DNA of 64,000 nt from Escherichia phage vB_EcoM_G53, in the sequence record MK327943.1. The stretch is one strand, 5' to 3'. Positions within the stretch are counted from its first letter, which is position 1. Each line of letters starts with the position of its first letter. Of this stretch, positions 1 through 59,595 are shown one piece after another. Below the pieces are notes generated by a model that was not told the DNA's origin, did not search any database, and saw nothing but the letters and a program-made list of their open reading frames with translations. The translations under genes and the position numbers were made by a program.

Positions 1-252
1 AAGTTTAGCATTACCCAAGATTCCGCGAACGGCTTTATCAATGTCTTCATTAAATAGCTTTTCAGCCTCATCAAGGGTAATTGTACCGTTGCATTTATGA
101 CCGATCATTCTGTCAAGTTCAGCTTTAGCTACGGCTAAAGACGGGTTCTTTGTTACCAAATGGCCTATGCCAATCGTCCAAAAGCCTTCGGTGTCTTTGT
201 ATAAAGTCAGTCTAAGACCTTCGTCATTACGAAGCATTTCAAATATATTCAT
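1..252 (-). CDS. e: endolysin (T4-type lysozyme e), N-terminal 84 codons; 3' end lies beyond the window start
   Basis: Minus-strand ATG at 252 reads [24 protein letters not shown], near-identical to the T4 lysozyme N-terminus; frame open to position 1. Confidence 0.9.
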
Positions 253-280
253 AATACCTCCCACGTTTATAGGAGGTATT
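253..280 (-). promoter_or_regulatory. stem-loop sequestering the Shine-Dalgarno of gene e (AAUACCUCC / GGAGGUAUU, 9-bp stem) with a late-promoter-like TATAAACG in the loop
   Basis: Perfect 9-bp inverted repeat 253-261 / 272-280 whose 3' arm is the GGAGG of the e RBS; T4 is known to control lysozyme translation this way. Confidence 0.55.
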
Positions 281-286
281 TATTAC

Positions 287-745
287 TTATAGGAGTGTAG
301 TGAGCACCTTATATAATGATTTACCCATTACATATTCCCATTGAGAAGGTTTAATTAAAGCGAATGCATCAAATTCAGGAATCTGTCGTCCGTCTGGGAA
401 TGTATGATAGGAATTACAAACACTGTTTCTGAATTGCTCGTGCTCTACAGGGATGGTATATAGGAACAGATGAATATTCTTATTGTCTGAGTAATGATGT
501 TCACCTAGGTCTTTCAGGAAGGCAGGGTCATATTGTGTAAACCCGGTTTCTTCTTCGCATTCGCGAATAGCGGCTTCAATAGGAGATTCGCCAGGTTCGA
601 CACGGCCTTTAGGAATATCCCACCGATGAGCTAATGCACCTTTAGGACGAGAACCAGTTACACGGCCCATGAATAACTCTTTATCTTTTGACATGAAGAT
701 AATACCGGCTGATAGCTCTTTCACTTTATTTTTCTTACTCATCAT
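287..745 (-). CDS. nudE: Nudix hydrolase NudE
   Basis: 152 aa; Nudix box GRVEPGESPIEAAIRECEEETG; directly after e as in T4. Confidence 0.85.
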   Translation of the reverse strand: MMSKKNKVKELSAGIIFMSKDKELFMGRVTGSRPKGALAHRWDIPKGRVEPGESPIEAAIRECEEETGFTQYDPAFLKDLGEHHYSDNKNIHLFLYTIPVEHEQFRNSVCNSYHTFPDGRQIPEFDAFALIKPSQWEYVMGKSLYKVLTTLL

Positions 746-971
746 CTCGGTCCCATGATTTGGCCATTAATTCGGACATAAATTCTTCAATGCGCGTTTC
801 TTTAGATGGACTTTCACTATTAGAGACCGCAAGTTTGTAATCTGCAATAGGACAGAACATATCAAGGTCCATATTAAGGTCGTCTTTGATTTTTTCTTCT
901 GACACATCTTTATCGTATGTGTACAGATAACTATCACATGATTCTGATTTAATGTAAATTGCTATACTCAT
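735..971 (-). CDS. hypothetical protein (78 aa)
   Basis: ORF track 735..986; start moved to ATG 971 (SD AGGAA, ATGA overlap with upstream stop). Confidence 0.5.
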   Translation of the reverse strand: MSIAIYIKSESCDSYLYTYDKDVSEEKIKDDLNMDLDMFCPIADYKLAVSNSESPSKETRIEEFMSELMAKSWDRDDE

Positions 972-1447
972 CTCAAATTCCTGCATTCGGTAATAAAACG
1001 TTCAACTTCATTATTCTTGGCTTTTATCTTGTCTTTATGTTCTTGTAAACTACTTTTAATAAGATTAATAATGATAGCGACGGTGCCGCCGCCAATGATG
1101 CCACCAATAATACTTACGATAGTAGATGCTAATAAGATAGCAATAATATCAACAAAACCGAAAGAACTCACCTTAGTACTAAAAAACCATACCGACGGTA
1201 CAAATATAATCCATCCTGTTATCCATTGGCACTTATTGAAAAACTTTTCAAGCTCAGCTTGAGTTGTTCGTATTACTTCATCGATAGGTTGATATCCATT
1301 AATGTATCTGTTCACGATAATACCTGCTGGCTGGTCGATTTTAAATTCTTGGCAAATATGTTTCACTAAGTAGGATGGACATCCTGTCCAATCTACTGAA
1401 TAGTATGAAATACCTTCGTTGCCATCGTCTATATTATTGTTAATCAT
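968..1447 (-). CDS. small membrane protein with C-terminal ExFIxECR tail (family member 1)
   Basis: 159 aa; hydrophobic stretches WIIFVPSVWFF and IIAILLASTIVSIIGGIIGGGTVAIIINLI; ends ERFITECRNLR; TAATG overlap with upstream gene. Confidence 0.55.
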   Translation of the reverse strand: MINNNIDDGNEGISYYSVDWTGCPSYLVKHICQEFKIDQPAGIIVNRYINGYQPIDEVIRTTQAELEKFFNKCQWITGWIIFVPSVWFFSTKVSSFGFVDIIAILLASTIVSIIGGIIGGGTVAIIINLIKSSLQEHKDKIKAKNNEVERFITECRNLR

Positions 1448-2133
1448 TACCAGCCTTCCATAGGGAATTCCAGATAAACTTGAGCATTGACACGAATTTC
1501 ATTGGTAATCTTTTTAACTCGGTCTGTATTACGAGATACACGTCCGAACCAACGCCATCCATTACTAATTGCACGAGAACCAGTGTGCCATGTTTGCCAA
1601 TCAAACTGAAGAAGAGTACGGTCTGGAGCTTCCCATTTCTCTAGTTCACCTTTTTCAATTTTTTCGAGGACTTCTTTGTGCCACTGACGATAGATAAGTT
1701 CGCCATCAGGAATCTGACTGAACTCTGCAGTTCCTGTTGCAAAATGAGTAGGACACACATCAGCGTTAACAAGACCAAGAATATGTTCAGAATGGTAACG
1801 AGGGTTGTCATAGTCAGGTTGTCCTGCAGTAATAAAGTGTTGTCCAACTGGAATATCAGGGCGTGGAACATCGTCATGGTGATATCCAGGAATAGCAGGG
1901 TACCAACCAGGCATCAGCATATGAACCCGAGAATCAAATACAACATGTTGATTAGTCCAATCAATTGGGAGATTGGCAATAAAGCTACGAGTGATTGAGC
2001 CACCATTATCCCAAGCAAAACCCAAATCACAATTAAAGAACATTGGTTCATTTTTGATTCGGTCATTTTGTACGTTATGTGCAAAACTACCAACTGCACG
2101 AGCTTGACTATTAAACACTTTAGAACTATTCAT
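1447..2133 (-). CDS. hypothetical protein (228 aa); tentative 2OG-Fe(II) oxygenase-like residue pattern
   Basis: Long ORF with ATG and coupling to flanking genes; HHDD ... WHTGSR ... GRVSR pattern loosely resembles HxD...H...RxS; not verified. Confidence 0.55.
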   Translation of the reverse strand: MNSSKVFNSQARAVGSFAHNVQNDRIKNEPMFFNCDLGFAWDNGGSITRSFIANLPIDWTNQHVVFDSRVHMLMPGWYPAIPGYHHDDVPRPDIPVGQHFITAGQPDYDNPRYHSEHILGLVNADVCPTHFATGTAEFSQIPDGELIYRQWHKEVLEKIEKGELEKWEAPDRTLLQFDWQTWHTGSRAISNGWRWFGRVSRNTDRVKKITNEIRVNAQVYLEFPMEGW

Positions 2134-2134
2134 A

Positions 2135-2440
2135 TTATTTTCCTCGACATTCTTTAATGAAATTTTCTAGATTGGTAGATTCAATAGCTTTTTTACGAGC
2201 TTCTGTGTGTTCTTCTTCGGACAATTTACGTTTATAATTGACCCAGACATTATGGTCGAAACCAGACGTGGCATATAATAACAAAGCTCCAACGAATAGC
2301 AAAAATGGTGATAAAAATATACAACCAGGAACACCATCCATACTGTAAGCCTTTTGTAATACTGCAACAGAAAGAGTTGCGTAAAAAGGTGATGCAAGTA
2401 TTGTTAAAAGGCCAATTCGGTTGGTTTCGCCTAATTTCAT
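2135..2440 (-). CDS. small membrane protein with C-terminal ExFIxECR tail (family member 2)
   Basis: 101 aa; two hydrophobic segments; ends LENFIKECRGK; first gene after PeSL promoter at 2461-2498. Confidence 0.55.
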   Translation of the reverse strand: MKLGETNRIGLLTILASPFYATLSVAVLQKAYSMDGVPGCIFLSPFLLFVGALLLYATSGFDHNVWVNYKRKLSEEEHTEARKKAIESTNLENFIKECRGK

Positions 2441-2460
2441 AATATTCTCCTCATGTTTTA

Positions 2461-2498
2461 ATAGGACTACTATAATATAGCCCTATCAGTTTGTACAC
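2461..2498 (-). promoter_or_regulatory. early promoter with inverted repeat (PeSL-type), weaker -35 (TGTACA)
   Basis: Minus strand TGTACA-N17-TATAGT; inverted repeat ATAGGACT / AGCCCTAT brackets the -10. Confidence 0.45.
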
Positions 2499-2699
2499 TT
2501 ATTTTGACATTTCTTCGATGTCACGACGATACCCATCACGAACTTCACGAAGAGCTTCAAGGCCACACATAGGCTCGATACCAGTAATGTGAACTTGATT
2601 AATCTGATACTCTACATCTTCTAACTGAGCGAAAACATAACGACGTTCTGCTGCACAACCAGGTTTAGCTTTACCGAAACGTTTATTCAAAGTAGTCAT
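2499..2699 (-). CDS. hypothetical protein (66 aa)
   Basis: ORF track 2499..2717; start placed at ATG 2699 preceded by GGAG; lies between two PeSL promoters. Confidence 0.5.
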   Translation of the reverse strand: MTTLNKRFGKAKPGCAAERRYVFAQLEDVEYQINQVHITGIEPMCGLEALREVRDGYRRDIEEMSK

Positions 2700-2728
2700 T
2701 TTTATATCTCCATTCACTCATTTGTTTT

Positions 2729-2766
2729 GATAGGTCTATAGTATCAACAACTACAGACCTTGTAAA
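2729..2766 (-). promoter_or_regulatory. early promoter (PeSL-type)
   Basis: Minus strand TTTACA (2761-2766) - 17 bp - TACTAT (2738-2743); short inverted repeat TGATA / TATCA around the -10. Confidence 0.6.
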
Positions 2767-2779
2767 CTGTTTTGCGAAA

Positions 2780-3736
2780 TTATTTGAAAGGTTTTACCAT
2801 ATGGAAATTTTGTTTGAAACGTTTGACGTAATCGTCGTGTCCTAAGCTTTGGTACATACTTACTACTTTGCTATAATTTTCCCAAGCGAACTCACGGAAC
2901 CATCCTGATGTGATTGATGTACAGACCTTTTCAAGGGCCATCATAAAACTATCACGTGGATGGATTTTAAAGTCGTTAGGAATCTGTGAACGTTCAAGAG
3001 CTAATACACAAGCTTCTTCATATACACCGGCTAATTTAACCATTTCTGGTAATGATTCGAACTTCTCGCGTGATGTCATAACTTCTGAGCCTTCTTTCAT
3101 ATAAAACTTATAAGCAGGCTGGTCAGTTAGTGCAATGGCTTCATGGATAGTATCATGGTCATACGTATAGATGTCATCTTTAAAGAACGCACTTTTAGAA
3201 GTGTCAAGAACTGGGTGAGCATAATTCAAGGTTTCTTTCTGGCGTTTCAGCATAATTTCAGTAAGTTCATCGTTCAGTGTAACACCTTTACCACGAAGAT
3301 ACTGAATATGGTTCATAGTCTTTAAAAAGAATGGATTATTTTTCTTGAAACGATGAGACATCTTAATTGCAAGACATATCTCAGGAGTTGCCCAGTAAAA
3401 CCCGTTCAAACGGTCTTTAGTCAAATTTTTCTTGGCGTATTTTAAAAGGTCATAAGAAGACGTGAAATCTTCAGGAGTGAGTTCACCGACTAGTTCGCGA
3501 ACGTTAGTGAGAGCCGGAACGATGTATGCTTCAAAATGAGTTTCGCGTCCATTATGGAAGCATTTGAAAACTTGGACATCAGGGTTATCTTGGTGAACAT
3601 ATACACCCATCATTTGATTTTTGAATGCATTCCAAGAACCTTGGTCCGCAATAAAGTCCCAATCACTATTTTTAATAGCGCTAGAATCAATAAGACCGTG
3701 ATAGTGAAGTGCACGAGAACCAATAACTAACATCAT
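2780..3736 (-). CDS. hypothetical protein (318 aa); N-terminal GS...DWD is weakly nucleotidyltransferase-like
   Basis: Long ORF, SD GAGGAAAAT upstream of ATG 3736; motif IGSRALHYHG...SDWDF; no secure domain call. Confidence 0.6.
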   Translation of the reverse strand: MMLVIGSRALHYHGLIDSSAIKNSDWDFIADQGSWNAFKNQMMGVYVHQDNPDVQVFKCFHNGRETHFEAYIVPALTNVRELVGELTPEDFTSSYDLLKYAKKNLTKDRLNGFYWATPEICLAIKMSHRFKKNNPFFLKTMNHIQYLRGKGVTLNDELTEIMLKRQKETLNYAHPVLDTSKSAFFKDDIYTYDHDTIHEAIALTDQPAYKFYMKEGSEVMTSREKFESLPEMVKLAGVYEEACVLALERSQIPNDFKIHPRDSFMMALEKVCTSITSGWFREFAWENYSKVVSMYQSLGHDDYVKRFKQNFHMVKPFK

Positions 3737-3764
3737 AATATTTTCCTCGGATTAATTCATTAAC

Positions 3765-4004
3765 TTAAATTTCACGACATGCGATATTATATTCATCCCA
3801 GAGGTCATCATGTGAAGCCTCTACCAATGGAACGATTGTACCGTTTATGTCTTCATTATAAGGGCAAATTGTACAGTGCGCATCTTCGAATCGGATGCCT
3901 TTGTGTTCAGATTTTTTATAACGCATATCGAATATCTTTGCAAACTTTTCACGAGTAATGGTTTTACCAACCACTTTGGTTCCGATACTTTCGTAATAAA
4001 TCAT
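3765..4004 (-). CDS. hypothetical protein (79 aa), Cys/His-containing
   Basis: ORF track 3765..4016; ATG 4004 has GGAG 8 nt upstream while ATG 4016 has no SD; contains HCTICPYNED. Confidence 0.5.
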   Translation of the reverse strand: MIYYESIGTKVVGKTITREKFAKIFDMRYKKSEHKGIRFEDAHCTICPYNEDINGTIVPLVEASHDDLWDEYNIACREI

Positions 4005-4023
4005 TGTGGACTCCATTTGTTTT

Positions 4024-4061
4024 GATAGGACTACTATAACATAGCCCTATCTTGTTGTAAA
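4024..4061 (-). promoter_or_regulatory. early promoter (PeSL-type)
   Basis: Minus strand TTTACA (4056-4061) - 17 bp - TATAGT (4033-4038); inverted repeat ATAGGACT / AGCCCTAT brackets the -10. Confidence 0.65.
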
Positions 4062-4066
4062 CTGTT

Positions 4067-4264
4067 TTAGCAAGAATAACTAGATGATACCCAGCCTTGA
4101 ACAGTGATACTATTGTGGGATAATGAGATCGCGTCCTGGAGATTCAGACCTGCGTTATCTTCAATCCATAATGTAACTTCTTCGCGTTCTTCTGTTGCAA
4201 TTTGGAACAGGTTTTCCAGAGCAGCTACTGCCGTACGTACAGCACAATCTAATTCACGAGACAT
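4067..4264 (-). CDS. small protein, GxWVxSSxxC C-terminal family (paralog 3 of 3, 65 aa)
   Basis: Ends VQGWVSSSYSC; SD TAAGGAAAC overlapping upstream stop; third of three tandem paralogs. Confidence 0.55.
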   Translation of the reverse strand: MSRELDCAVRTAVAALENLFQIATEEREEVTLWIEDNAGLNLQDAISLSHNSITVQGWVSSSYSC

Positions 4265-4273
4265 ATTGTTTCC

Positions 4274-4546
4274 TTAGCAAGTGTGAGAAGATGCGACCCA
4301 ACCACCAGTTTCGAGGCTCAGGTTGTAGTCGTATTGGTAAACGTCAGCCCATTCAGCATAGCCGTTTTTTGTACAACGTTCAAGATCGGCTTTAAGATGT
4401 CCGGGTGAATGATAGGTTCCACCCATACCATAAGCTGGGTACAAGTTGAACGTTGTGTTTTGTTTATCAGCAATTTCTTTGGCAGCCTCAATAGCTGCAT
4501 AGATTTTTGCTACAGCTTCAGCCAGTTCGGTTTGTTCTTTAGACAT
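4274..4546 (-). CDS. small protein, GxWVxSSxxC C-terminal family (paralog 2 of 3, 90 aa)
   Basis: Ends TGGWVASSHTC; shares YGxGGTY with paralog 1; SD TAAGGAAT overlapping upstream stop. Confidence 0.55.
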   Translation of the reverse strand: MSKEQTELAEAVAKIYAAIEAAKEIADKQNTTFNLYPAYGMGGTYHSPGHLKADLERCTKNGYAEWADVYQYDYNLSLETGGWVASSHTC

Positions 4547-4555
4547 AACGATTCC

Positions 4556-4861
4556 TTAGCACAACGCAGAAGACGAAACCCAAGCACCTTCAGTAATAAC
4601 GTAACCATTACCTTCACGCTTAACATCGCCACCATTATTTTCAATTTCATCTTTCATCCACTGGGATACGATTTCACCCTTAGGATAATAAGTACGACCG
4701 CTACCATAATCACCTACAGAAAATGATACGGCATATTGGTCTGCGATCTTTGTTGCTTCTTCTTCGATACGTTCAGCTTGATTCAGAAGTTTATAAATTG
4801 CATCTGAAGCGGATTTGGCATCATTAAACTCTGGTACTTTAATTTCAATAATCTTACTCAT
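4556..4861 (-). CDS. small protein, GxWVxSSxxC C-terminal family (paralog 1 of 3, 101 aa)
   Basis: Ends EGAWVSSSALC; ATGA start/stop overlap with upstream membrane protein gene. Confidence 0.55.
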   Translation of the reverse strand: MSKIIEIKVPEFNDAKSASDAIYKLLNQAERIEEEATKIADQYAVSFSVGDYGSGRTYYPKGEIVSQWMKDEIENNGGDVKREGNGYVITEGAWVSSSALC

Positions 4862-5217
4862 TTTCTACATTCCTTAATAAAGTTTTCGATTGTTTCATTT
4901 TCACGTTTAGCTAGAAGTTCATTATAACTAATCATTTGAGAAGCGTAAATCTTTTTATTTTTCTTGTTATGGTTTATAAAATCGTAGTAAAAATAGACTA
5001 CAGTACAAAATGATGCGATGGATGCAAAGGCTTGGGTATACCGTAAGTCCTGCCATTGGTCTGTGAATCCACCAGTGTTCCCTATAAATCCTAACACAAC
5101 GCCGTCAATAAGAAATCCAACTAATCCAAAGGCAAATCCCATGCCAATACTCATAATAAAAATTAGAATGTTCTCACCAAGAGAAGGCCATACGGTTAAG
5201 AGTTGAGGCTTTTGCAT
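4858..5217 (-). CDS. small membrane protein with C-terminal ExFIxECR tail (family member 3)
   Basis: 119 aa; hydrophobic segments; ends IENFIKECRK; SD TTAAGGAAATAAG upstream. Confidence 0.55.
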   Translation of the reverse strand: MQKPQLLTVWPSLGENILIFIMSIGMGFAFGLVGFLIDGVVLGFIGNTGGFTDQWQDLRYTQAFASIASFCTVVYFYYDFINHNKKNKKIYASQMISYNELLAKRENETIENFIKECRK

Positions 5218-5591
5218 CTTATTTCCTTAACGAATTCCATAGCTTCTTCATATTCATACTTTTTAACAGCTTCATCATACTGAGCTTGGGCTTTTGCGCA
5301 CTGAACTTTCCATTCTCTTAATCGGGCTCTGTGATGACGGCCTTGGTGCCAATATCCTACCCAATTAATAGGCATTAATAAAAACGGTACAATAAGTGGT
5401 GCGACGAACATTAATGAAAATGCTGCATCAGACGATATAACTTCACTAGAATCTAAAACAGCTCCTATAATCATAAAGATTAAAAATGCTAAAGCTAAAA
5501 TAGGGCCAAATAATACTTCATTTGGGATTAATTTACGCTTGTATTCATACGCCCAGGGCTTACTTGGCATGTATAGGGTTGGCTTTGACAT
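5196..5591 (-). CDS. small membrane protein with ExFVKEIRC-type C-terminal tail (family member 4)
   Basis: ORF track 5196..5621; start moved to ATG 5591 (MSKPTLYM) just after the conserved tail codons of the upstream gene; hydrophobic segments. Confidence 0.5.
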   Translation of the reverse strand: MSKPTLYMPSKPWAYEYKRKLIPNEVLFGPILALAFLIFMIIGAVLDSSEVISSDAAFSLMFVAPLIVPFLLMPINWVGYWHQGRHHRARLREWKVQCAKAQAQYDEAVKKYEYEEAMEFVKEIRCKSLNS

Positions 5592-6162
5592 ATTCTCTAC
5601 ATTCCATAATAAATTGCTCAAGGATTAAATTGTTAGTGAAATTAGGACTAACAACCATAGTTTCATAAAGCGCATCAATAGCACTTAAAGCATCAACTCT
5701 TTTAAGCAAAGGCTTGCCTTCATACATAGTTTCAGAATCGATGATTAACGTAAAGTAATATTTTTTATTATCGACTAGAACTTCTGTATCGATATAAAAC
5801 ATATTAGACCTCAGAAGCTTATCTCTAAAGCCATAATAATCTTCAGAGCGTTCGCTGATATATTCCCATTCAGTGTTTAAACAACAAACAGACCACGTAG
5901 GAGCAACGAAATCAGTGAATCTAATATCATGGTCTGCAACTAGTTTAGCAATAGCTCCGATATCATGAATCATAATACCTGGGGCTAATAAAGATTTTCT
6001 GCTATGGCTAGCCGTTTTCTCGGTGGTCTCATAAGAAGACGACCAGTACCATTTACGTCCGGTTGCAACATATCGTAATGAATCAACTAAAGACGTAGGT
6101 GGATTTACCTTATCTCGGAACTCTTCGAACATTGAGTCAATATCATTATTTTGGTTTCGCAT
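5560..6162 (-). CDS. hypothetical protein (200 aa) with ExFIMECR motif near C-terminus
   Basis: ORF track 5560..6183 begins at TTG; ATG 6162 has a strong AAGGAG SD; contains LEQFIMECREY. Confidence 0.55.
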   Translation of the reverse strand: MRNQNNDIDSMFEEFRDKVNPPTSLVDSLRYVATGRKWYWSSSYETTEKTASHSRKSLLAPGIMIHDIGAIAKLVADHDIRFTDFVAPTWSVCCLNTEWEYISERSEDYYGFRDKLLRSNMFYIDTEVLVDNKKYYFTLIIDSETMYEGKPLLKRVDALSAIDALYETMVVSPNFTNNLILEQFIMECREYVKANPIHAK

Positions 6163-6181
6163 GTTAACTCCTTTATTATCC

Positions 6182-6203
6182 AAAAGGAGGACCGGAGTCC
6201 TCC
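6182..6203 (-). terminator. hairpin plus short U-run (weak terminator or attenuator) between operon genes
   Basis: GGAGGAC-CGGA-GTCCTCC perfect 7-bp stem followed by UUUU on the minus strand; sits in the leader of the next gene. Confidence 0.45.
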
Positions 6204-6211
6204 GTATTATT

Positions 6212-6805
6212 TTATTTCAAAGAGTTAATATATTCTTGTACATCAGCAGAAGTGGTTTCGACGCCGGCTGGAGTGCCATTGAACGTTTCAACACGAGTCA
6301 GAGTGTCTTCGATATCAACCTTAGTCAGTGCAGCTATTTCAATTACATCATCGGCCGTAGAGATACCAAGGGCATTAGCTGCTCGAGTTTCACGAATGTA
6401 TTCGAGTTTGATTGCCAGATTCTGACGAGCATCGTCAAGTTCAACCACCTTACGAGCAATTTCAATTCGCATAGCGGCATACCCGTCAGCTTTTGTATTA
6501 AGTTGTTCGGCAGTTCGACGATACAGAAGACCAAGCTTAGCATGCATAGTAACATCTTGTCCTTCAGCCAGGAGCTTACGAATTTCACGTTCCTTAGAAG
6601 CGGCTTGCTTGTTCTTTTCATTAACAAGTTCGCGAATACGTTTTTCTTCATTAATAGATTTAACAGAAGCCGTTTTTAGTTCTTTGATTTGGGTAATCAA
6701 CTTATCTGCAGCTGCGTTATACTGTTCTTCGACAGTCAGATTTTTAGCCATAGCAGTACCCAGTTTAGTGCGGATGAATTCAACAAGTTTCTTCAGTGTG
6801 TTCAT
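6212..6805 (-). CDS. coiled-coil protein (197 aa); weak resemblance to PspA/IM30-type proteins, unverified
   Basis: ORF track 6212..6820 begins at TTG; ATG 6805 preceded by AAGGT; Lys/Glu/Ala/Arg-rich heptad-like sequence; first gene after promoter at 6841-6875. Confidence 0.55.
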
Positions 6806-6840
6806 ATTATTACCTTTCAATTGGTGGTTTATTATCCAAT

Positions 6841-6875
6841 GAGAGCATTATACTCTGCTCTCAAGAGTTTGTAAA
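6841..6875 (-). promoter_or_regulatory. early promoter (PeSL-type) with consensus -10
   Basis: Minus strand TTTACA (6870-6875) - 17 bp - TATAAT (6847-6852); inverted repeat GAGAGC / GCTCTC brackets the -10. Confidence 0.65.
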
Positions 6876-7103
6876 TTATTTTTTAATCAAATTGACATAA
6901 AACTTGGCGTCTTCTGGGTGCATGCCTTCGCAGTATTCTTCAACCATGAACTTCTTAACAGCTTCATAAGGACCACTCAGATTAAGCTCAGTTGTCCAGA
7001 ACTTGGAATCTTGGGCTGAATCGATATGAACTTCAGGGTGACGGTTGCGAATAACTTCTTCTGTGTATTCATAATCAACGACATCAATACTAACTTTAGC
7101 CAT
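6876..7103 (-). CDS. hypothetical protein (75 aa)
   Basis: ATG 7103 preceded by GAGAGGAAAA; single-gene cassette between two PeSL promoters. Confidence 0.5.
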   Translation of the reverse strand: MAKVSIDVVDYEYTEEVIRNRHPEVHIDSAQDSKFWTTELNLSGPYEAVKKFMVEEYCEGMHPEDAKFYVNLIKK

Positions 7104-57139: not shown

Positions 57140-58249
57140 ATGATTAGTGTAAAAGAAATAGTAGTAGATGCAAAGGATTTAAATAAAGCAATCCCAGTCT
57201 CAGAAAGTGCCGGGCAAAGCACTAAAACAGAAACAACTACTAAAACTTATGTTGCTCAATTTCCTACAGGAAGAGCAGCCGGAAATGACTCCACAGGAGA
57301 CTTCCAGGTAACAGACCTTTATAAGAATGGATTATTATTTACCGCGTACAATATGTCTGCACGCGATTCAGGATCCCTCAGGAATTTACGTCCGGCGTAT
57401 GCCGGGACTTCATCTAATGGTATCATATCAGATTTAACTGATAATGTGAAAGATGCAGTGACTAAATTCTCAAATGGATTGCTTCCTGCCGGAGCTAATA
57501 AGTCTACTATAAACAAAACTCCTGTTGCTAATATACTTTTGCCACGTTCCAAATCCGACGTTGATACAACTTCGCATCGTTTTAATGATGTCGGTGATAG
57601 CCTTATTACTAAAGGTGGAGGTACTGCTACGGGTGTTTTAAGTAACATTGCTTCTACCGCAGTTTTTGGTGCATTAGATTCTATTACTCAAGGGCTTATG
57701 GCTGATAATAACGAGCAGATTTATACGACTTCTCGTAGTATGTATGGTGGTGCTGAGAACCGTACTAAAGTCTTTACATGGGATTTAACTCCACGTTCAA
57801 CTGAAGACCTTATGGCTATTATAAACATTTACCAGTATTTTAACTATTTCTCATACGGTGAGACCGGTAAATCACAGTACGCCCAAGAGATTAAAAGTTA
57901 TTTAGACGAGTGGTACCGTTCAACGTTTATTGAGCCTATGACACCAGACGATGCAGTAAAAAATAAGACATTGTTTGAAAAGATTACTGCGTCATTAACA
58001 AATGTATTAGTTGTAAGCAACCCTACAATTTGGATGGTTAAAAACTTTGGTTATACATCTAAATTTGATGGATTAACTGACGTATTTGGCCCATGTCAAA
58101 TTCAAAGCGTACGTTTTGATAAAACTCCAAATGGACAATTTAATGGTCTTGCTGTTGCTCCTAACTTACCATCAACATTTACGTTAGAGATAACAATGCG
58201 AGAAATTATTACATTAAACCGTTCTTCACTTTATGCGGGGACTTTCTAA
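57140..58249 (+). CDS. 48: baseplate-tail tube junction protein gp48
   Basis: 369 aa, T4 order. Confidence 0.9.
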   Translation: MISVKEIVVDAKDLNKAIPVSESAGQSTKTETTTKTYVAQFPTGRAAGNDSTGDFQVTDLYKNGLLFTAYNMSARDSGSLRNLRPAYAGTSSNGIISDLTDNVKDAVTKFSNGLLPAGANKSTINKTPVANILLPRSKSDVDTTSHRFNDVGDSLITKGGGTATGVLSNIASTAVFGALDSITQGLMADNNEQIYTTSRSMYGGAENRTKVFTWDLTPRSTEDLMAIINIYQYFNYFSYGETGKSQYAQEIKSYLDEWYRSTFIEPMTPDDAVKNKTLFEKITASLTNVLVVSNPTIWMVKNFGYTSKFDGLTDVFGPCQIQSVRFDKTPNGQFNGLAVAPNLPSTFTLEITMREIITLNRSSLYAGTF

Positions 58250-59537: not shown

Positions 59538-59560
59538 AACGTTTTCCTCATGTTGTTGAT

Positions 59561-59595
59561 GGGATGATAGTATCACACATCCATGTGTTTGTAAA
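59561..59595 (-). promoter_or_regulatory. early promoter (PeSL-type) inside the 3' end region of alt
   Basis: Minus strand TTTACA (59590-59595) - 17 bp - TACTAT (59567-59572); inverted repeat GGATG / CATCC. Confidence 0.6.

Follow-up and report, generated by a model that had tools for sequence, protein, structure and literature searches.

Otherwise dissimilar proteins encoded downstream of e.6 in T4-like phages share a C-terminal tail that is probably a docking motif

Why should a series of otherwise dissimilar phage proteins end in the same few residues? The question is raised by a gene array of Escherichia phage vB_EcoM_G53 (MK327943.1), of which a stretch of 64,000 nucleotides (nt) was analyzed, called the window in what follows. 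Over its bases 1-7000 the window is 97-98.7% identical to RB69-like Mosigvirus (MM02, mobillu, ATK47), and the minus strand is the coding strand of every gene in this region. Gene names were assigned by annotation transfer and by comparison with T4. Our answer, to which we give a probability of roughly 0.75-0.8, is that the tails are an interaction motif that acts at the protein level and has one or more partners in common. The five tail-bearing genes of the window are the following.

968-1447, minus strand: e.2L, the long form of T4 e.2; 159 amino acids (aa), phrog_2203; a soluble N-terminal part, two transmembrane (TM)-like segments and a predicted cytoplasmic tail ending in ..VERFITECRNLR (..ERFITECRNLR); motif codons 980-1003.
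2135-2440, minus strand: ORF101, an RB69-type open reading frame (ORF); 101 aa, two TM segments, phrog_9798; tail ..LENFIKECRGK; motif codons 2144-2167.
4858-5217, minus strand: homologue of T4 e.3; 119 aa, membrane protein, phrog_2330; tail ..IENFIKECRK; motif codons 4864-4887.
5196-5591, minus strand: homologue of T4 e.4; 131 aa, two TM segments, phrog_2604; a Cys-less tail variant ending in ..AMEFVKEIRCKSLNS (..MEFVKEIRCKSLNS; MEFVKEIRC..); variant motif codons 5217-5240.
5560-6162, minus strand: homologue of T4 e.5; 200 aa, soluble, phrog_2607; tail ..LEQFIMECREYVKANPIHAK (..EQFIMECREYVKANPIHAK), with the motif 11 residues before the end; motif codons 5596-5619.

Coordinates and sequences agree with the initial annotation, made from the letters of the window alone, in which a common tail was noticed on these five proteins. 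A search in all six frames with the pattern E.F[IV].E[CI]R gave exactly four matches in the 64 kb, all of them 1-11 residues before the stops of array genes, where 0.0064 matches are expected from residue frequencies and the average over 200 shuffles was 0.005. The fifth gene, e.4, has a looser tail with Ile replacing Cys, and the R-C codons of this tail are overlapped by the start codon of e.3. No match to the strict motif was found in real ORFs of the remaining 55 kb of the window, nor in those of 50 kb of an unrelated phage (Phapecoctavirus) used as a negative control. Kyte-Doolittle analysis detected TM-like segments followed by a K/R-rich stretch in four of the five proteins, the hydrophobic segments themselves having been noticed before; the exception is e.5, in which this method found no TM segment. 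By the positive-inside rule, the K/R-rich stretch that follows the TM segments would place the tail in the cytoplasm.

The motif is not a peculiarity of this phage. Our comparative set comprised 52 loci (729 kb, at least 12 genera) with 200,240 residues in coding-strand ORFs that measure 60 aa or more. The nudE-e.6 region was taken from Dhaka-, Gapriver-, Marfa-, Moon-, Karam-, Kanagawa-, Jiaoda-, Teguna-, Tulane- and Pseudotevenvirus, and 42 further loci, each holding an e.6 relative, came from IMG/VR. With e.5 as the sole query, the search for related loci recovered two, both nearly identical. A separate IMG/VR search with a restricted DNA pattern for ExFIKECR returned 26 loci, mostly with chance internal matches (for example in ribonucleotide reductase), and was left unused. 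For each of the 139 coding-strand matches to the strict form F[IVL]..CR in the 52 loci, the C-terminus is at most 24 residues away; two matches were found on the opposite strand. Each genome encodes 1-6 proteins that end in the motif, which stands 0-24 residues before the C-terminus. The motif has been retained in at least 12 genera.

T4 itself has these tails. Its e.3 ends in ..KEFVIDCRKIK, e.4 in ..MKFVKESRCKSQS and e.5 in ..EKFVKECREYVKAITIPSK, the three proteins being about 46% identical to their window counterparts, and strict matches in real ORFs of the complete T4 genome are confined to e.5, e.3 and a detached e.2 tail. Orthologues of e.2L with the tail occur in QL01, SP18, PEi20 and other Tequatrovirus, and tails of the e.4 type in other genera read FIKEVR, FIRNVR, FVMEMR or FLKEMR. 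The e.2 gene of the T4 reference (annotated as 102 aa; NC_000866 ~67,472-67,960, which is 573-1061 on the minus strand of our locus L004) is frameshifted: compared with other Tequatrovirus (162 aa; locus L044, 7952-8440) an A-run has lost 1 nt, a +1 insertion follows some 65 nt further on, and the distal part of the gene is back in frame and still ends in NNFITECRKLK. This is either a laboratory-strain mutation or an old sequencing error.

A logo built from 167 unique tails reads L/F/V/I at position -3, E/N at -2, N/E/D at -1, F (W) at 0, I/V at +1, K at +2, E at +3, C at +4, R (K) at +5 and K/E/G at +6. The conserved core is phi(-3)-x-x-F(0)-[IV](+1)-x-x-C(+4)-[RK](+5), phi being a hydrophobic residue. 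Glu at -2 is frequent (66 of 167 tails), yet dispensable, and Cys is present in 133 of the 167. No entry uniting the tail proteins was found in Pfam, NCBIfam or PHROGs, and our literature search, in which gene-name queries were noisy, returned no description of the tail motif.

Since many tails lie close to the start of the next gene, the peptide could in principle be a by-product of conserved bases, either of a ribosome-binding or translational-coupling region or of a short recombination linker. Part of the data is what such a nucleic-acid element predicts. In the window, AAGGAA in the K-E codons of the e.3 and e.4 tails is the Shine-Dalgarno (SD) sequence of each next gene. The genes after e.2L and ORF101 have separate SDs (AGGAA and GAGGAAAA, respectively) that start past the Cys codon, overlapping Arg and the following codons in the first case and the Arg, Gly and Lys codons in the second; the Arg codons of the window tails are AGG, CGA and AGA. 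The overlap with AAGGAA, the separate SDs of two copies and the varied Arg codons had been described correctly from the start. Across the comparative set, 104 of 159 tails have the next start 0-11 nt past the Arg codon and 53 have it 12-150 nt away, with an overall range of -12 to 150 nt. An SD-like AGGA or GGAG is found in codons +2/+3 at 44 of 92 adjacent junctions (next start at most 8 nt away) vs 1 of 67 distant ones, K-E occupies +2/+3 at 29 of the adjacent vs 5 of the distant junctions, and AGR accounts for 52% of tail Arg codons against a background of 16%.

The core, however, does not behave as such a by-product. F..C[RK] is present in 61 of the 67 tails whose next start lies 9-150 nt away, compared with 67 of the 92 adjacent ones, so that the motif persists where the downstream ribosome-binding site has moved; its loss there, named in the initial annotation as the refuting observation, did not occur. 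Its residues are kept under synonymous variation: Phe is encoded by TTT 99 times and by TTC 56 times, Cys by TGT 70 and TGC 63 times, and Arg by AGA (55), CGT (40), AGG (21), CGA (13), CGC (12) and CGG (5), that is, by CGN as well as AGR codons; usage of Phe, Cys and Ile codons is close to the genomic background. Some tails precede an intergenic gap. At the DNA level the window tails share only 22 nt, at 77-91% identity and with differing synonymous sites, which speaks against a recombination linker as well as against recent gene conversion, and a PeSL-like linker was rejected on this ground. Also rejected was a nascent-peptide effect on termination or re-initiation, as neither the distance to the tail's own stop (0-24 codons) nor that to the next start is fixed.

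Because the core is kept at distant starts and its synonymous codons vary, we conclude that it is selected as protein; protein-level selection on top of translational coupling, as originally proposed, is strongly supported. The eight-residue motif first described needs revision in its composition: the shared tail stands, and selection acts on the core given above, the K-E (AAGGAR) at +2/+3, together with part of the Arg codon choice, being largely imposed by the overlapping ribosome-binding site. A nucleic-acid element is refuted for the core and survives as an explanation of the K-E preference and the AGR bias. Tails with a next start no more than about 8 nt away also use their two free middle positions to encode the SD of that gene.

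The proteins that carry the tails are diverse. PHROGs places those of the window in five different, unannotated families, and neither Pfam nor NCBIfam gave a match. After removal of the tails, 48 tail proteins from 12 genomes formed 30 blastp clusters (E<1e-3), some of which are diverged positional orthologues; the e.5-position family, for example, is internally homologous. Thirty clusters, and five PHROGs for five window proteins, do not fit one paralogous family with similarity over the full length, though the TM carriers may have a very distant ancestor in common. At least four carrier types can be distinguished: soluble e.5-type proteins, two-TM e.4-type proteins (with V, I, M or S for Cys), further small two-TM proteins (among them e.2L, e.3 and ORF101) and soluble proteins of 90-115 aa. 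Among 20 aligned e.5-position proteins only Met1, N96, F184 and C188 are invariant and R189 is conserved in at least 90%, which makes the motif the most strongly conserved stretch of this family. The e.5 database representative (P0040) has a precomputed Pfam accession, PF26876, an entry absent from the Pfam copy searched, in which it had no match.

A candidate for a common partner, e.6, is encoded in the neighborhood of the array. The features that surround the array in the window are the following.

287-745: nudE, downstream of the array.
6186-6203, minus strand: terminator-like G+C hairpin and, after it, a T run, lying past the stop of e.6 and ahead of the start of e.5.
6212-6805, minus strand: homologue of T4 e.6; 197 aa, predicted to be all-helical and PspA/Vipp1/ESCRT-III-like.
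6847-6875, minus strand: promoter-like site TTTACA-17-TATAAT (11/12), directly upstream of e.6.
6876-7103, minus strand: Frd.3-like protein of 75 aa, just upstream of e.6, ending in ..AKFYVNLIKK.

The tails had been described as a dispersed family, and this description has to be abandoned: they are confined to one gene array downstream of e.6. The array always starts directly after e.6, with the e.5-type gene in first place. In IMG/VR loci that contain e.6 and enough downstream DNA, the next ORF bears a tail in nearly every case; the exceptions are L043 (a frameshifted copy with the tail on the downstream fragment), L070 (none by a simple ORF filter) and the pair L076/L077, whose tails have I or V for Arg. 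We counted 1-6 tails in the 6 kb downstream of e.6 and essentially none in the 6 kb upstream. Aeromonas phage AS-gz and Pseudotevenvirus leB have a single tail gene, which likewise follows e.6. In the 40-kb early region of an Acinetobacter T4-like phage with a DUF7275 neighbor gene (one partial genome) neither e.6 nor a strict tail was found, and the absence of both is consistent with linkage.

The tails of L076/L077, which are large Aeromonas phages, read FINYCI and FVDYCV, with I or V at +5, and their e.6 ends in ..YIDSLSK and is changed at otherwise conserved acidic/basic positions of helix alpha2/3. Tail and e.6 may covary here, on too few lineages to judge.

In database records e.6 is sometimes called 'host specificity protein' and is otherwise unannotated. 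When a profile of 12 e.6 orthologues was compared with the PDB, the best matches were Vipp1/IM30, collinear over residues 3-140 (E 0.02-0.07). PF04012 (PspA_IM30) is matched by one of the 12 family members (E 1.5e-4); e.6 of the window lies below the curated sequence threshold and is not filed as a Pfam member. Alignment of the e.6 family with a single Vipp1 fragment by hhalign gave a probability of 16%. An AlphaFold2 (AF2) model built from 27 sequences (predicted local distance difference test score, pLDDT, 75) has helices at residues 2-22, 25-80, 86-145, 166-175 and 186-196, a layout of alpha0, a long alpha1-alpha2/3 hairpin, alpha4 and alpha5. Foldseek searches of the PDB with this model returned Vipp1 in all of the top 10 places (best E 4e-4, probability 1.0), followed by archaeal CdvB2 and PspA (7abk). 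Taken together, the profile, the PF04012 match of one member, the AF2 model and Foldseek indicate that e.6 is PspA/Vipp1/ESCRT-III-like in its predicted fold. A literature search combining PspA or ESCRT-III with phage found no statement on the fold of T4 e.6. Synteny of the tails with a PspA/Vipp1-like protein favors a common partner over a sorting or degradation role, the three possibilities that the initial annotation had offered.

In ESCRT-III, PspA and Vipp1, helix alpha5 binds the tip of the alpha1/alpha2 hairpin, a contact that is required for polymerisation or assembly and is made in the closed monomer or, domain-swapped, within the polymer (PMC8281802). The most conserved block of e.6, residues 88-97, is situated at the hairpin tip of the model, and alpha5 of e.6 ends in [ED]-Y-[IL]-x-S-L-K, with the hydrophobic/basic arrangement that the tails also have. 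When the last 28 residues were searched for a class pattern, phi-x-x-[FWY]-[ILV]-x-x-[CLIVM]-[KR], it was present in 20 of 22 e.6 sequences and 134 of 162 tails, against 4 of 1003 other ORFs, and tail variants such as EFVNSLR bridge the tails and e.6 alpha5. From this likeness and the conserved hairpin tip we infer that the tails may dock on the e.6 hairpin. The hydrophobic residues at -3, 0/+1 and +4 would then form one face of an amphipathic alpha-helix, and the tail would be a common docking peg through which interchangeable adaptors bind one partner. The most likely socket would be the conserved e.6 hairpin tip, where ESCRT-III-type proteins bind their own alpha5; by docking there in an alpha5-like manner, the tails could tether an e.6 polymer to the inner membrane or regulate it there. 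The array itself is a rapidly diversifying set of genes for two-TM inner-membrane carriers and soluble ones.

We propose e.6 as the partner only tentatively, at somewhat less than even odds. The wider proposal, that T4-like phages encode an ESCRT-III/PspA-type remodeller (e.6) plus exchangeable adaptors with alpha5-mimicking tails as a modular system of membrane repair or remodelling, is for now doubtful; if it is true, the adaptor repertoire of this phage-borne system would differ between genera. T4 has further C-termini that fit the class pattern, those of rIII (..HFVVTLK; NC_000866 130,788-130,814), rI.1 (59,547-59,573) and mobD.3 (58,173-58,199), probably by chance; rIII is a cytoplasmic lysis-inhibition protein and may deserve attention.

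Several observations weigh against docking on e.6. The class pattern was written after the e.6 C-terminus had been seen, and an unbiased position-specific scoring matrix of the tails gives the e.6 C-terminus 0.6-8.7 bits, within the top 1-15% of other C-termini. The Cys is conserved far beyond the need of a hydrophobic contact, and e.6 has Leu at this position. The e.6 protein of the window itself has no PF04012 match at E values up to 10. Synteny could merely reflect a hyperplastic region that accumulates new early genes. Finally, the AF2 model of e.5 failed (pLDDT 37, shallow alignment), which leaves residue periodicity and a prediction of low confidence as the basis of the proposed helicity and exposure of the tail; the sole structural hint of a tail helix is a low-confidence helix at e.5 residues 181-194.

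The alternative that survives best retains a docking motif and places the socket on a host or other phage protein (in the host, a hub of the inner membrane or cytoplasm such as a protease, PspA/PspF or a division protein), so that the array would supply adaptors or effectors aimed at one host target. Conservation of the motif at the protein level across genera, on diverse carriers, fits this reading, as does the modest tail-likeness of the e.6 C-terminus by unbiased scoring, and a conserved target is plausible given that all hosts are Gammaproteobacteria (mostly enterobacteria and Aeromonas). However, the strict position of the array after e.6, also in lineages with a single tail, is left unexplained, and we found no similarity to a known host-binding motif. 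We regard this alternative as unlikely, in either form.

Another possibility is that the array has no hub at all: the tails might pair with each other in a homo- or hetero-oligomeric helical zipper, or be the retained structural remnant of one ancestral small protein, the N-terminal parts having diverged until they can no longer be recognized. The membrane carriers do share a succession of TM hairpin, basic stretch, charged helix and tail, and the genes are arranged in tandem with adjacent near-duplicates, such as gp14/gp15 of Potts1 (NWIKGCRK and NWVKGCRK). Yet the tail occurs without this architecture on the soluble proteins of the e.5 type and of 90-115 aa, the carriers fall into 30 BLAST clusters and five separate PHROGs, and a helix of 8-9 residues is short for a stable zipper, which makes this account improbable.

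Two further readings we consider very unlikely, and about equally so. The tail could serve turnover or quality control, as a degron or as a tag recognized by a protease or chaperone, and so time the life of early accessory proteins. Its place near the C-terminus, the early and probably transient roles of the genes and the terminator and promoter layout, which suggests dosage control, are compatible with such a signal. Unlike terminal degrons, however, the motif stands 0-24 residues from the C-terminus with charged residues after it; it is charged and amphipathic rather than ssrA-like, and its linkage to e.6 would have no explanation. Alternatively, the flanking residues could serve only to present the Cys as a shared metal ligand, thiol switch or covalent modification site. 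The frequency of Cys in the tails, its invariance in the e.5-position family and a neighboring second family that ends in W-x-S-S-x-x-C speak for this chemistry. On the other hand, V, I, M or S takes the place of Cys in e.4-type tails, as L or A does in other variants, each tail provides at most one Cys, and the cytoplasm is a reducing environment. A nucleic-acid element as the explanation of the whole tail, for which the data on distant starts and synonymous codons were given above, is hardly tenable.

How do the tails compare with known systems? In the Psp and Lia systems a PspA-fold protein is encoded beside small inner-membrane partners (PspB/PspC in enterobacteria, LiaH-LiaI in Bacillus), and the cytoplasmic part of PspB, PspC or LiaI is thought to recruit or regulate the PspA-fold protein. 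Like these, e.6 adjoins small TM proteins with a K/R-rich stretch and a C-terminal tail. This is analogy and not homology: the window tail proteins have no similarity to PspB, PspC or LiaI as judged by Pfam and NCBIfam matches. Unlike the Psp and Lia partners, the tail array is phage-encoded and provides 1-6 interchangeable partners per genome, soluble ones included, united by one short motif. In ESCRT-III and Vipp1 the contact with the hairpin tip is made by alpha5, a short amphipathic C-terminal helix, and the predicted alpha5 of e.6 and the tails share phi-x-x-aromatic-[ILV]-x-x-phi-basic near the C-terminus. In the known systems, however, alpha5 comes from the same protein family (within one subunit or between subunits), whereas the tails would act in trans from unrelated proteins, and their unbiased likeness to the end of e.6 is modest.

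The SSB C-terminal tail, the beta-clamp-binding motif and the MIM-MIT pairs, which bring many proteins to one hub, resemble the tails in being peptides of 6-9 residues at or near the C-terminus of unrelated proteins and far better conserved than the rest of each carrier. They differ in sequence, and the tail carriers are gathered in one array instead of being spread genome-wide. MinD and FtsA also have a short amphipathic C-terminal helix, as predicted for the tails, on proteins at the inner membrane. Unlike theirs, the tails carry acidic residues (E, D or N is frequent at -2, -1 and +3), and most carriers, four of five in the window, are already integral to the membrane; for these reasons a lipid-binding role is unlikely. 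The junctions finally resemble other coupling junctions of T4 early genes, in that many tails end a few nt from the next start and the K-E codons (AAGGAR) double as SD, and differ from them in a core that is synonymously variable and independent of the distance to the next start. C-terminal docking peptides and modules of PspA plus membrane partners are thus known; what is new is a phage-encoded multi-adaptor array with an F-I-x-x-C-R tail.

T4 is the best-studied virulent phage, yet its genes e.2-e.6 are without assigned function. By a single peptide motif, at least five genes of T4/RB69 can now be placed in one functional group with dozens of 'hypothetical' genes of other genera, and this group is linked to a PspA/Vipp1-like protein that the phage encodes. 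Annotators gain from the motif a simple rule for recognizing array members that sequence clustering splits. For experiments, F0, I+1, C+4 and R+5 of the tail and the e.6 hairpin tip are the handles. If docking is true, the phage diversifies its adaptors at one constant interface, and a viral branch would be added to the field of bacterial ESCRT-III proteins.

The region contains other features of interest. In the annotation of phage ATK47 a terminator is placed at the position of the hairpin at 6203-6186, and the promoter-like site upstream of e.6 is annotated as a host-like promoter. The hairpin could raise the dosage of e.6 above that of the tail genes. The ..AKFYVNLIKK end of the Frd.3-like protein, one of the only four non-tail ORFs that fit the class pattern, may be a degenerate tail, its membership being uncertain. 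An 83-aa protein (3765-4016, minus strand) ends in ..LWDEYNIACREI, with C-R correctly placed and Tyr at the aromatic position; it was not counted as a tail protein, as its orthologues in other genera end in ..NDYVAEI and ..NTYCQEI.

A second C-terminal motif family lies inside the array. The phrog_899 paralogues at 4067-4264, 4274-4546 and 4556-4861 (minus strand) end in W-[VIL]-[SA]-S-S/H-x-x-C, Cys being the last residue, and this type of ending was found on 62 unique ORFs in 31 related loci, within the same array. Intergenic cassettes are also repeated: 2416-2504 matches 3980-4068 (89 nt, 71% identity) and 2719-2738 matches 4014-4033 (20 nt, 95%). They coincide with minus-strand promoter-like sites at 4061-4033, 2766-2738 and 2497-2469 and are probably early-promoter modules between gene blocks.

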